NCBI GenBank assembly: GCA_964016885.1
Contig: OZ024743.1
Location: 74,276,001-74,340,000, forward strand
Length of the DNA stretch: 64,000 nt
Direction: 5' to 3'
DNA from: Eledone cirrhosa
Lineage: Eukaryota
Below the pieces are notes generated by a model. It saw only the letters and a program-made list of their open reading frames with translations. It was not told where the DNA came from and did not search any database. Of this stretch, positions 7,496 through 62,625 are shown piece after piece. The position numbers were made by a program, and so were the translations under genes. The first letter of the stretch is position 1. Each line of letters starts with the position of its first letter.

Positions 7496-7741
7496 GGTTA
7501 AGTTTTCATTACGTTTATTGGTTAGTGACGGACGTTTCACTATTGATCAGCTCAAGGTTGGATCTGTATCAATCTGGCCCGACTCTGGAATCAAAAGCTC
7601 GTCGGACAGAATGTCAATACTGTCATTACTACATCAGAGGTCCGACGAGCTTTTGATTCCAGAGTCGGGCCAGATCGAACCTTGTGCTGATCAATAGTGA
7701 AACGTCCGTCACCAACCACTAAACGTAATGATGGCTTAACC
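7496..7741. mobile_element. Fold-back Penelope-like LTR module with a hammerhead-like motif in each arm
   Basis: Arms ~7496-7607 and 7640-7741 are inverted. The plus arm reads GGT-CCGACGA-(long stem II)-GAAA-CGTCCG-TC-ACC (7639-7713). Related to 54083-54161 and 13779-13865. Confidence 0.7.
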
Positions 7742-7955
7742 TAGCAGTAATACACTGATATAATTGTGCAAAAAGTAGAAACAATTATTATATTACATTC
7801 TGTCTAGCGCAACACCTGGATATTGACGTGAACCTAAACATAGAGTATTCACCTGGTTGAACCTACAGTAGCTTCGCGTTACACTCCCTGGATATATATA
7901 CACACACACACATATATATATATATATATATATATGTATAGATATATACATATAT

Positions 7956-8595
7956 CAGCTCCATTATTATCATATTTACACATATTTTTTCCTCTGCTGC
8001 CACCCGTCTGTTTCGTTCTTTGTATCTTTACCCTTTCTAGCAGTCTCTCTCGCTCTGTTAGACTCCTCCTCAACTTTCACTCACTCATTCTCTGTCACTA
8101 CCTCTCCTTTTTCTTCCCGCTTGACCTGTCCGATTTCTTTTCTCGCGCGCTCTTGGCCAAGCCGGTATGAATTTTTTTTCTCTCTCTCTCTCTCGTCTGC
8201 GACTTCACAGAACTTATGTTTACCGAATTCGCAGACCAGACCCCTTCTTCTTCCCCCCGTTAGACCTGTGCGAAATTCCTTCCTTGCTCACATTTCAACC
8301 AGGTTTGATGGTCTTTATTCTCTCGTTCACGATTTCACCGAGTTTATATTCATAGAAATCTGGAACTTGTCTCTTTCTTCTCACTTTCTGTTGCTTAAAC
8401 CATTTTGTTTGTTCACCCTAACGTCCCCTTTATTTACGTGTCCCAACGACTTTTTTTAGCCGTTGTTCGCACCAACCTGAGGTATATGGCCCTTAAAGCG
8501 ATGAAATGCCTAGGACGGTTGGAGGGCCACTGATGAAGGACTTACTTTTTCATATGTAACCCATTTGCAACGCCGCAGCTCCATTATTATCATAT
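7956..8595 (+). mobile_element. Non-coding ~620 bp repeat unit between (TA)n tracts, with a terminal direct repeat
   Basis: CAGCTCCATTATTATCATAT occurs at both ends. It shares TAAAGCGATGAAAT...CACTGATGAAGGACT...CATATGTAACCCAT with 32568-33132 (minus strand). Confidence 0.6.
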
Positions 8596-9128
8596 ATATA
8601 TATATATATATATATATATATATATATATATATATATATATATATATATATATATATATATATATGTATATATGTATAGATATATACATATATATATATA
8701 TATATATATATATATATATATATATATATATATATATATATATATATATATATTTTATATATTTATGAATAATACATATATACATACGTGAATACATGCA
8801 TACATACATAAATGTATATATATATCTATATATATTTATTTATATAAGTATGAATGTATATTTAGACACACACACACATATATATTTATATATATATATA
8901 TATATATATATATATATATATATATATATATATATATATATACGTATATATATACATATATATATATATACAAATATATACACACATGTACATACATATA
9001 CATGCATACACATACATACACGTATATAATTATTATACACGTACATATAATTATTTATCGACATTTTTGAAATATTTCCAAAGGCTTTACGTATCGTAAA
9101 AATACGTCTTATTTGTCAGGGTCATTAT

Positions 9129-9705
9129 GAGTAGTAGTAGTAGTAGTAGTAGTAGTAGTAGTAGTAGTAGTAGTAGTAGTAGTAGTAGTAGTAGTAGTAG
9201 TAGTAGTAGTAGTAGTAGTAGTAGTTGGTGGTGGTGGTGGTGATTGCGAAGTTAGTGATGGTGGAGGTAGTAAGGTGGTGTTGATGGTGGTGGAAATGGT
9301 GGTAAGGTGGTAGTGGTAGTGGTTTAGGGGGGGTAATGGTGGTAATGGTGGCGGTGGTGCTTAGGTGGTGGTAGTGGTGACGTGGTGGTGGTGTTGGTGG
9401 TAGAGGTGGTGAGGTGGTAGTGGTGGTGGTAGAGCCGGTGGTGAGGTGGTGGTGTTGGTGGTGGTGGTGGTGGTGGTGGTAGTGGTGACGTGGTGGTGGT
9501 GGCGGTGGTGATGGTAAGTCGGGGGATGTGACATGGCGGTGATGGTGGTGGTCGTAGTGGCGGTAGTGGTAGTGGTGGTGGTGTTGGTGGTGGAGGTAGT
9601 GCTGGTGGTGGTTGTAGTGACGGTAGTAGTGGTGGTGGTGGTGGTGAGGTGGTAGTGGTGACGTTGTTGTTGTGGTGGTGGTGGTGGTGGTAATGGCGGT
9701 GGTAG
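9129..9705. repeat. (GTA)n followed by degenerate (GGT)n low-complexity tract
   Basis: Seen directly. It explains the Pro/His/Thr-rich ORF 9324-9737. Confidence 0.9.
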
Positions 9706-59319: not shown

Positions 59320-59359
59320 GTCTTTACATGTTTAACATCTAGTCGTCTCATCAGTAGAT
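59320..59359 (-). ncRNA. Degenerate hammerhead (G12 lost)
   Basis: ATCTA-CTGATGA-GAC..GTT-AAA-CATG-TA-AAGAC. Confidence 0.5.
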
Positions 59360-60859
59360 AAATATTCTTATACTTACAACGAAGAGAACCGAATGCAAAT
59401 GACTATTTATGTCCAACATAAACTAGTTATTAACTGAAATTGCCCTTCTAAATTGCACACTGCTTATTTATTTAGCAAGGTAATAAGTTAACTAAAGAAT
59501 ATGTATGCATATCACTGCATGTTAGAAAAATCGACTTAACTTTCACATTTTAGTCTATAAATCTTAGATTATCTTAGATTAATACAAGAAAACATCAAAA
59601 CAGATGAAACTCATATATCTCCTTCAACAAAGTTCTCTTTTAAAATAGCTAGTTGTTAATCACAGAATAAAGAAATATATAATAAAAACAAGATTACCTA
59701 TATATCATTACATTTTGATGGGTAAGACTGGATTAGTCAACTTGCCTAGGTAAATTCTTAAGTTTATCTTTACATTACATTTGTTTCTAGAGAGGCAGCT
59801 AGTATGAGGGGTTCTTTCTACCGTTTAAAAAGGTTCATTTTGCACTATACACTGCCTTGGTAAAATTCTATCACATCATTGAGATAACCTGTAGATTGTT
59901 TGTGGAATTTAGGGGATAAAAACTGCACAGAAACGCGTTGCATATGTGAGTGGTGAGTGTGTCTGCCTGTGCGTGAATATGTGTTGTATATGTATGTGTT
60001 TACATAATATATAAATGTACAAGTATATATATATATATATATATATTGTTATATTTGGGGAGGGTCATATTTGCGTAATATTGCCAGAATTAATAACAGA
60101 ACACACTCACTGTTTGGTTGGTTTTCGCTTCTCGCTGTCTTATATATATATATATATCTGCGATCTAACTTACTGCGATCTAACTAATTCATCGCCGCTA
60201 TATATATATATATATATATATATATATATATACAAACATAAATTATCGAGATTCGCATTTCGGCTCACGAAATAACGAAAAACAACATCCGCGATGTGCG
60301 GCAAGTGCTCAATGATTCAGATGAACCAGAGCTATAACAAACGTTAAAGGCCAAACACACTTAGACGATGGTTAAACAATCATTCGCATAGCCAAAAAAA
60401 ACGATCAAGTAATTCGGGTATTGAAAATTTACCCGGATCCCTGGAAGGTTGGTAAAATCCAGTATATGGGTTTCTGCGGCTCCTAAATCAAGTACCGTCC
60501 GCTTACATAAATAATGTCAGGCTTCTGGTAAGATGATTGAACAAGGAAGCCACTTTCTCAACAGGTTTTAGTTCAATGTTAATACAAGGACTGACTATTG
60601 CTGACCCCACGTGGGGATCGGCAAGGGAGGCAACCCCTATATCAGGCGAATGAATTCAGTTGTGTATATTTTTGCAAGAATGCAAAAACATCACAAATCG
60701 AATAGAGTTCTCAACAGAAGGGTTACAATTAACATAAGCTATTCATCAGTCAATAGAATCAACTAAAAGAATCAAGAAAATTAACTGGTCAATAGCTAGA
60801 GTCTGGAGAATAATACAAACATAAATATATATATATATATATATATATATATATATATA

Positions 60860-61560
60860 TATATATATAAAACAGAGAATGTCTGTCTGTCTGTCTGTCT
60901 GTATGTCTGTCTGTCTGTCCGATCACTAAAACTCAAGAACCACCCAACCGATTGTTTTCAAACTTTACACATGTAATACTTATGGTCCTGTGGGTGTTTT
61001 GAGAAAAGAAAATTTCAAATTTTCAATGCCCTATCGCATTAGGCGATTTAACGATCCCTCTATAACTCTTAGTCTTTCTTTTTAGATAGATACATAAATA
61101 TAACGTTGCGCCCTTATAATATCTGTCTGTATGTCTGGCTGTCTGCATTACGACATTATGACGTAGCTGTGTGTGTGTGTGTGCGTGTGTGTGTGTGTGT
61201 GTGTGTGTGTGTGTGTGTGTGTGTGTGTGTGTGTGTGTGTGTGTGTGTGTGTGTGTGTGTAGTGTGTGTGTGTGTGTGTATAGTGTGTGTATATATATTA
61301 TATATATATAGTGTGTAACGTTTTTCGAAATATTTACTTCTGCGTTCACAGATTGATTTTTTTTAGTTTCACAAGATCCCGTTAAGGGTGATAGCAACGA
61401 TTCGTTGTTTAAACTTTAATCTGTTATTTTAATATATATATATATAATAACAAGATATGAACAAACGTATTTATTTCACGAGGCACGATAGGGATAAATA
61501 TATATCAAATATATAAGAACCCTAGAGCAAATCCCGAGCAACGCCGGGCCATTCTGCTAC
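60860..61560 (+). mobile_element. Non-autonomous Helitron-like element with internal (CTGT)n and (GT)n
   Basis: 5' TATAAAA..(CTGT)n..AACTCAAGAAC..CAACCGATT pattern. 3' hairpin CCCGAGCAACGCCGGG followed by CTGCTAC (CTAG-like end). Confidence 0.65.
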
Positions 61561-61740
61561 ACAATAACAATAACAAAATATAAACAAAGTATTTATTTCG
61601 CAATAAAAAATGGTAATCTGGGATGCATTTTTTTTATAAGCACAAAATGTAGACACCATCCCGAGGCCGAGGTATTCCGTACTTCTCTGTACTGTTATAT
61701 ATATAGATATATATATATATATATATATATATATATATAT

Positions 61741-62625
61741 ATATAAGAACAAAAGATGGTTAAAAGAGTTCCATGTATTTTATTATGCGCATTTCAAAAA
61801 CAAATATCATCATGCAATAACATTTGTGTTTTCATCAGATAAAATAGGAACACTTGTGAATCGTGCAGTTTTAAATCAACATATGAAAAGTAGTTTTAGA
61901 TTGATGTGTGATATTGGGAAAAAAAATGTTGAGGGGGGGGGGTGGAAAGGATGAAAAAGAGGAGGAGATGAGAGTAAAAAGTGGAGGGGAGGAGTATAAT
62001 GAGGAAGGATGAGATAGGAGGAGAGATGGGTGATATATAGAGAGAGATAGCTTTTATAACTGAGAAAAAATATATTGTTTTACATAGAGAGGTTGAAAAA
62101 CCGTTGGAAGATAATATATAAATTAAAAGAATTTGAAAATTAACGAAGAGAAAAATAATGTTAAGTTAAGTTGTGTATATTGAAGGGTTTAATAATATGT
62201 GCGATGAAAAGAAATTGTTAATATGTATTAAGAATAATATTTAAGGGTTTAATAATATGTGCGATGAAAAGAAATTGTTAATATGTATTAAGAATAATAT
62301 TTAAGGGTTTAATAATATGTGCGATGGAACTCTTTTAACCATCTTTTGATCTTATATATTTGTTTCTACTTTAGGCACAAGGCCAGCAATAACCAGTTCA
62401 TTACTGGTACTTTATTTTATCGACCCCGTAAGGATGAAAGGCAAAGTCAACCTCGGCGGGATTTGAACTCAGATCGTAAAGGGACGTAACTATGCTGGAA
62501 AGCATGGCGTCCGACCCGTTTGATCTTATATATTATGTATACTCCAGTCCTACAAACTGTAGAGTGCTTCTTATCCGATATCTGCATTGCTTTATTGTAC
62601 TACAATAAAACTCACCTCCTACATT
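61741..62625. mobile_element. Penelope-like LTR module with an inverted end, hammerhead 61776-61846 (minus), 60-bp tandem repeat and nested SINE
   Basis: TATTTTAT-CTGATGA-AAACA..TGTTTTT-GAAA-TGCGCA-TA-ATAAAATA. 61741-61773 is inverted at ~62325-62358. Same family as 56570-56760. Confidence 0.75.
62361..62518 (-). mobile_element. 5'-truncated SINE with a 16-bp TSD
   Basis: TTTGATCTTATATATT at 62345-62360 and 62519-62534. Confidence 0.88.

Follow-up and report, generated by a model that had tools for sequence, protein, structure and literature searches.

Lunse et al. (PMC5785218, as cited in PMC6765202) reportedly described minimal hammerhead ribozymes with a palindromic helix III in the end repeats of metazoan Penelope-like elements (PLEs). 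We analysed motifs of this kind in a 64-kb window of the Eledone cirrhosa genome (contig OZ024743.1, positions 74,276,001 to 74,340,000, from the 3.0-Gb assembly GCA_964016885.1 with 1796 contigs), where an earlier note had claimed more than 15 type-I hammerheads with a different palindrome in each family. The hammerhead motifs are real, and that observation is partly confirmed. With a probability of roughly 85%, they are the 3′ ends of truncated PLE insertions, in whose parent elements identical copies likely swap strands and cut as a predicted dimer.

The closest described relatives are the pseudo-long-terminal-repeat hammerheads of PLEs, which in the available text of PMC4209133 share with the present motifs the type-I order, a short palindromic helix III, and a bulge before helix II. 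They are also alike in forming many divergent families per genome, mostly as solo truncated copies, in opposite-strand pairs a few hundred bases apart, and in a U3-A8 core variant. The motifs here are far more numerous (approximately 2 x 10^5 by extrapolation, with descriptors that differ), and some families here have a 60-110-nt helix II or a U4C core that is fixed. Palindromic helix III is listed as a recurrent feature of PLE hammerheads in the same text and is shown for several ribozymes according to the legend of Fig. S8 in PMC3088659. Its dimer reading is reviewed in the available text of PMC6765202, and core variants U3-A8 and U4C were already known (PMC4209133; PMC3088659). The dimer design of palindromic type-I motifs is already published, and the window copies are further members.

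Hydra-clade PLEs, as the available text of PMC8557442 describes them, are similar to the elements studied here in their C-terminal GIY-YIG domain, CxCX5C linker, DKT motif, and insertion at (TA)n, as well as in a hammerhead near the 3′ end, head-to-head copies, and an optional tail. By the first four of these traits, the open reading frames (ORFs) in E. cirrhosa appear to fit the Hydra clade, an assignment made on motifs. Few families are described there, whereas at least 7 of the first 39 10-kb stretches sampled here contain ORF pieces, and the RW motif is followed by I or R rather than K (LRWIA or LRWRA, in 3 of 10 loci scanned). Metazoan retrozymes without long terminal repeats (PMC7229834 and bioRxiv 10.64898/2026.07.22.740005, in their available text) also carry type-I hammerheads in short repeats, as does a 310-bp array at locus L269; in contrast, the type-I copies of the window occur singly or inverted, and an ORF adjoins the motif in five families.

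Type-I motifs were sought with a strict descriptor (CUGANGA, GAAA, and NUH in C-G-S order, with stems I and II) and with a relaxed library of hammerhead families, which was assembled from loci beyond the window and is biased towards the window's families. The strict descriptor finds four matches, at 15109-15154(+), 47034-47095(-), 56685-56755(-), and 61776-61846(-), against a mean of 0.07 and a maximum of 1 in 100 dinucleotide shuffles of the window. Without the palindrome bonus the same four are recovered, and the shuffles give a mean of 0.09 and a maximum of 2. This comparison, which the earlier note had proposed, came out in its favour. The relaxed library marks 21 remnants from 11 repeat families and overlaps all 16 sites that had been named. 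Every one of these sites thus matches a hammerhead repeat family, but judged from sequence only four pass strictly, five retain both core boxes while missing stem thresholds or having a variant core (52803, 12787, 7639, 54083, and 28190), and seven have a broken core (13779, 28386, 33373, 50002, 55961, 57767, and 59320). Four of the six sites singled out as best are the strict matches; 52803 keeps both boxes, and 57767 reads GCAA for GAAA. The type-I core is intact in the family consensuses. Two families have variant cores: sites 7639 and 54083 carry CCGANGA (CCGACGA, the U4C variant, in the 7639 family), and the true core at 28190 is TTGAAAA, the U3-A8 variant. First-look genome-search candidates, which are not copy numbers, range from 247 to 3480 per family searched, with only 3 for site 59320. 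An Rfam scan of the window (E<=10) contained no hammerhead among the matches listed (150 of 175), and its microRNA matches fall on TA runs and fold-backs. The type-I remnants and elements of the window are as follows.

7509..7607, minus strand: family F remnant with core CCGACGA; inverted twin of 7624-7728, lacking the 5′ side of stem I.
7624..7728, plus strand: family F hammerhead (site 7639); U4C core, long helix II, helix III ACGTCCGT, family consensus ACGCGCGT.
12788..12848, minus strand: type-I remnant (site 12787); helix III ATATATAT, family unrelated to that of 47034.
13764..13864, minus strand: family F remnant (site 13779); broken core CCGTCGA, helix III ACGCGCGT.
14765..14844, minus strand: family D hammerhead, additional inverted copy; helix III ATGCAT.
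15109..15154, plus strand: intact minimal hammerhead of family D; helix III ATGCAT, two copies predicted to co-fold into a double hammerhead.
28180..28245, minus strand: family C hammerhead; U3-A8 core TTGAAAA, helix III ACCGGT, helix II damaged, within the fold-back 28215-28323.
28371..28466, plus strand: family A remnant (site 28386); neither core box intact, immediately next to the family C fold-back with no intervening TA run.
28828..28887, plus strand: family A, 3′ half only.
33249..33382, minus strand: family J remnant (site 33373); helix II of about 110 nt, helix III ACGATCGT, neither arm complete because the fold-back centre sits in the core.
46902..48584, minus strand: PLE-A, 5′-truncated; end of the GIY-YIG ORF at 48584-48384, about 1.3 kb of 3′ region, hammerhead, tail, then (TA)n.
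47095-47034, minus strand: PLE-A hammerhead, intact; helix III ATATATAT.
48585..50081, plus strand: PLE-B, 5′-truncated; CxCX5C linker and GIY-YIG at 48585-49162, head-to-head with PLE-A.
49903-50027, plus strand: PLE-B hammerhead remnant (site 50002); broken core, helix III ACAATTGT.
50639..52948, plus strand: PLE-G, inserted between TA runs; C-terminus of the endonuclease near 50895-51020, 3′ region of about 1.8 kb.
50639-50897, minus strand: inverted end copy of PLE-G.
52803-52899, plus strand: PLE-G hammerhead; helix III ACGATTGT.
54069..54176, plus strand: family F hammerhead (site 54083); core CCGATGA, helix III ACGTGCGT.
55954..56055, minus strand: sister subfamily of G (site 55961); broken core, private helix III ACAATCGT, subfamily consensus ACAATTGT.
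56685..56755, minus strand: intact family E hammerhead; helix III ATGCGCAT.
57602..57823, both strands: family H head-to-head pair; helix III ACTAGT, arm 57602-57674(-) with both core boxes, arm 57751-57823(+) with GAAA changed to GCAA.
59311..59363, minus strand: old relic (site 59320); GAAA box lost, helix III ACATGT, 3 genome-search matches.
61776..61846, minus strand: intact hammerhead of a second family E subfamily; helix III ATGCGCAT.

A complete ribozyme at 33373(+) was rejected.

Hammerhead identity and Penelope-like origin are both supported. In five families (A, B, E, G, and J), a GIY-YIG ORF lies on the motif's strand, 0.7-1.9 kb upstream of the hammerhead. The link occurs with no TA run between ORF and motif in family A at loci L018/L225, L022/L226, L186, L220, L240, L268, and in the window; in family B at L032-L037, L039, L040, L242, and in the window; and in family G at L215, which is matched by window positions 50895-51494. 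Family E shows the link at L074, L078, and L092, and family J at L317, in both cases again with no intervening TA run. Within the window, a GIY-YIG ORF on the strand of site 47034 ends 1.3 kb before this motif, and a second such ORF precedes the 50002 remnant by 0.8 kb. A hammerhead at 47034 antisense to its own ORF was rejected, because two different elements meet head-to-head at 48584/48585. A Pfam search found no family for the two ORF fragments of PLE-B, which were identified by motifs and tblastn. The linker in the window reads CNCHLPDKCP, and among the 10 loci scanned the CxCX5C linker is present in 8 and DKT in 6.

Truncation, inversion, and an optional tail are given as traits of PLEs in the available text of PMC3846280 and PMC11167929, and 5′ truncation, head-to-head inverted copies, and an optional 3′ tail are all seen here. 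The sequence shared 5′ of the motif has a median length of 74-275 nt across families, and a few copies reach the 1.5-kb limit of the test. Most copies end next to a TA run, which lies within 300 nt of the 3′ end in 33/46 copies of family D and up to 48/49 of family E, mostly at one of two distances, like an optional tail. Among the uninterrupted head-to-head pairs, 106 of 109 join members of the same family. Same-strand pairs within a family number 26, of which 10 belong to one array, and no uninterrupted pair of this kind was found for type I in the window.

As a general account, it is rather doubtful that the motifs are mainly non-autonomous retrozymes, that is, tandem repeats giving circular RNAs rather than pieces of protein-coding elements. 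L269:245-3387 (G000:C3:190000001-190010000) is a retrozyme-like array of 11 hammerheads with a 310-bp period and helix III ACGCGT, L227 holds three family H copies about 465 bp apart, and the ORF link is unconfirmed for D, H, F, C, and 12787. Against this, five families run straight into the GIY-YIG ORF, the shared 5′ extents vary widely, as under truncation, and none of the window's type-I copies lies in a tandem array with a 150-450-bp unit, whereas the L269 copies do. Retrozymes and PLEs are linked anyway (available text of bioRxiv 10.64898/2026.07.22.740005), and the retrozyme reading can therefore hold for some families only.

The abundance of these insertions was estimated from a 990-kb sample of the larger contigs, comprising 99 stretches of 10 kb placed at round-number positions. 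This sample contains 68 strict matches, 11 of them in one tandem array, where ten shuffles average 1.1. The rate corresponds to 4.4 strict matches per 64 kb against 4 in the window (P of 4 or more = 0.50), so the very high density noticed earlier is high for the genome as a whole and the window itself is ordinary. Extrapolated genome-wide, strict motifs number 2.1 x 10^5 (bootstrap 1.3-3.1 x 10^5). With the relaxed library, biased as it is towards the window's families, the window has 21 remnants versus 10.7 expected (P = 0.06), and the genome about 5.0 x 10^5 (3.8-6.4 x 10^5) from at least 30 families. For comparison, the available text of PMC4209133 gives approximately 2,000 minimal motifs in S. 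mansoni, 4,000 in the coelacanth, and 9,000 in Xenopus, using different descriptors, and that of PMC7229834 gives 126,247 type-I motifs in the axolotl, with different methods.

We used a palindrome-blind descriptor to compare helix III between families. It returned 259 matches in 53 clusters, and 17 of these clusters have at least two copies. Helix III is an exact palindrome in 10 of the 17 families, a palindrome with G-U in 3, one with a single mismatch in 2, and of odd length in 2. The two innermost positions, which are the ones a hairpin cannot use, pair in 14 of the 15 families whose helix III has an even length (chance 0.15 for each; the families are not fully independent). The predicted cost of a monomer hairpin is +2.4 to +6.0 kcal/mol, homoduplexes of exact or G-U palindromes are predicted at -2.2 to -13.3, and two copies of 15110, 56685, or 52803 co-fold into a strand-swapped double hammerhead. 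In a group of 11 hand-picked A/E motifs, all 44 helix III cells pair, with changes from A-U to G-C and between U-A, U-G, and C-G. The G-U form ATATGTAT occurs 11 times in the 68 sampled strict matches and its A-C mirror ATACATAT 0 times, which points to selection on RNA. G-U forms are the consensus in whole subfamilies, as in family G with ACGATTGT versus ACAATTGT in its sister. The family pairing, energies, and co-folds argue for selection on a self-complementary helix III of the kind that dimers need, as the earlier note had suggested. The palindromes it listed are correct as family consensuses, but they do not differ in each family, as ATATATAT is found in the 47034 and 12787 families and ACAATTGT in the 50002 and 55961 families.

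Several observations weigh against dimeric PLE ends as a complete account. Two copies of 47034 do not co-fold into a dimer. The two-sided change in the A/E group is a single event among 11 hand-picked rows. The AGAACT family is abundant (14 copies, 10 loci), yet its centre is non-complementary (homoduplex +2.4). A dimer in cis needs tandem copies, and these (26, with 10 in one array) are rarer than inverted ones (106). Families D and H each have an upstream ORF at one locus whose flank is not shared by other copies, TA runs intervene between ORF and motif in family C, and no ORF link was found for family F, 12787, or 59320, so some families may be non-autonomous. The counts of TA runs near the 3′ end stand without a background control. 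In the available literature, even dimers show low activity (PMC4209133), and one PLE hammerhead depends on the protein of its element and is not required for insertion in vitro (PMC11167929).

For the dimeric PLE ends we envisage the following mechanism. On the RNA of a parent element in partial tandem, the end repeat would be present in two identical copies. Too short to close on itself, helix III would form only between these copies, and their identity would require it to be a palindrome. Since any palindrome would serve, each lineage would acquire its own by drift, apparently via G-U steps (ATATATAT/ATATGTAT and ACAATTGT/ACGATTGT), and lineages would often converge on the same one. The copies in the window are most likely dead on arrival. 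A working population is unlikely because no copy is accompanied on its strand by a twin from the same insertion, several are paired with an inverted copy and fold with it into a single long hairpin, and 7 of the 16 named cores are broken.

The earlier note had also raised the possibility that the palindromes are a family-specific pairing code, with each family's RNA dimerising only with its own kind. Most different palindromes are indeed predicted not to cross-pair, and nearly all head-to-head pairs (the 106 of 109) are same-family. We nevertheless consider such a code quite unlikely. Same-family inverted pairs are also expected from copying one template, and palindromes are shared by unrelated families: among the 17, ATATATAT is found in 3 and ACTAGT in 2, and ACAATTGT serves several. 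Sister families are predicted to cross-pair as well as they self-pair (ACGATTGT with ACAATTGT at -6.1 kcal/mol versus -5.8 and -6.4), the AGAACT family has no self-complementary centre, and mixed junctions unite different palindromes (ATATATAT with ACAATTGT or ACCGGT). An obligate heterodimer of 55961 (ACAATCGT) with 52803 (ACGATTGT) was rejected because ACAATCGT is a private mutation, found in 1 of 37 scored copies, with ACAATTGT in 22. A literature search, with most subscription journals beyond its reach, found nothing on a pairing code.

It is hardly credible that the palindromes belong to the DNA level, as fold-back products or noise from AT-rich microsatellites, and not to ribozyme helices, even in a region full of fold-backs and TA runs with ATATATAT as the commonest palindrome, given their constant position between GAA and the cleavage base, the common GC-rich palindromes, G-U but hardly any A-C forms on the ribozyme strand, and 1.1 matches per 990 kb in shuffles against 68 real ones.

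A further, predicted hammerhead family in the window was absent from the earlier list. Its core is permuted, with the order cleavage site, GAAA, CUGAUGA (type SGC), and it is represented by the following features.

7956..8592, plus strand: repeat monomer of about 620 nt carrying the permuted hammerhead; 20-nt direct end repeat.
8436..8545, plus strand: predicted SGC hammerhead; non-palindromic helix III, stem I of 7-8 bp, helix II bridged by a 5′ strand.
32566..32680, minus strand: second, diverged SGC hammerhead.
33080-33143, minus strand: 5′-truncated SGC copy on the same strand.

Relatives of the 7956-8592 monomer form same-strand tandems of 620-650 nt, and the 8436-8545 copy belongs to a young subfamily whose best 40 copies are 98-100% identical. 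Outside the window, 14 SGC remnants were found in 8 of the 99 sampled stretches. Covariation was assessed on 20 of 26 distinct near-full copies with a seven-helix model, in which 93% of 695 cells pair and 18 of 35 pairs show two-sided changes (0 of 500 shuffles match it, and pairing in slid controls is 31-46%). The model had been drawn by eye on the alignment used for scoring, and covariation counts are inflated by relatedness among sequences. Two-sided changes affect 5 of 7 pairs in stem I, and 88% of helix III cells pair. Helix III is an ordinary 5-6-bp stem, predicted to form within the molecule with no need of a partner. No continuous stem II was found between the C and G blocks in this family. 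Instead, one covarying core pair (4 pair types) joins them directly and is continued by two 4-bp helices to the 5′ strand.

The nearest described system is type-SGC HRIMA-1 and its variants (PMC10085705, in the available text), which is alike in block order, covarying stems I and III, and conserved core. It differs in deriving from metatranscriptomes and metagenomes rather than a multicopy animal repeat, and in its helix II. In the present motif, helix II is the core pair extended by two 4-bp helices with a separate 5′ strand, and cleavage is a prediction. That text describes cleaving SGC hammerheads and says that its motifs were not found in the genomes of described organisms, with the exception of one other type. 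A literature search of the same reach as above found the SGC order in print only from environmental sequence. Among the matches listed, the supplement of PMC8557442 marks some Naiads as having a core or half core. We think it probable that 8436-8545 and 32566-32680 represent an active hammerhead in this order (SGC, a non-circular permutation) with a three-strand helix II, a monomer cutter that would mobilise units of about 620 nt. The genome would then have solved the problem of a weak helix III twice, with palindromic dimers and with a rewired monomer.

Junctions that join different families head-to-head, uninterrupted by a TA run, account for 3 of the 109 clean pairs (one of these 3 unites sister subfamilies), in addition to PLE-A/PLE-B. 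They are located at 48584/48585 and 28321 in the window, at L098:1531-2088, and at L249:363-607. Two RNAs meeting at a single break, or a template jump, could give rise to them. The fold-back points at 33342-33416 and 28215-28323 recur at the same base in many copies, and that of family J is a natural local palindrome inside the hammerhead core. A further, very abundant fold-back element at 50083-50296 (also at 62688-62770 and 29052-29093) lies between TA runs, has 58 blast matches in 28 of 100 sequences, and contains covarying internal hairpins; no hammerhead core of either order was found in this family. The octamer ATGCAAAT occurs within 250 nt upstream in 29/46 copies of family D and 46/67 of family H (loci L042-L070 and L152-L175) and in at most 13/86 of other families; we take it to be possibly a promoter element. 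The AGAACT/AGGACT hammerheads at L096, L116, L270, L273, and L321 sit 220-306 nt behind an ORF of a different PLE type.

TA runs and other microsatellites are abundant in the window, as are decayed reverse transcriptases of long interspersed nuclear elements, at 531-2339, 10653-11483, 16405-17587, 19860-21766, 22856-26375, 28874-32266, 36580-41581, 42885-46535, and 53108-53905. Long open frames of these elements remain at 38801-41581 and 43914-46535 (Pfam RVT_1). A tRNA-like Rfam match at 54944-55007(-), with 29.9 bits barely over the gathering score, is possibly the head of a short interspersed nuclear element.

Overall, the roughly 200,000 intact-looking and 500,000 recognisable hammerheads that this genome seems to hold, in at least 30 families, are enough to trace how palindromes drift via G-U steps. 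The rare mixed-family junctions, being impossible from one self-primed template, bear on how PLEs make inverted insertions. If the permuted motif cleaves, the range of SGC-order hammerheads would widen from environmental RNA to include a mobile element of an animal, one whose helix II takes a new form.

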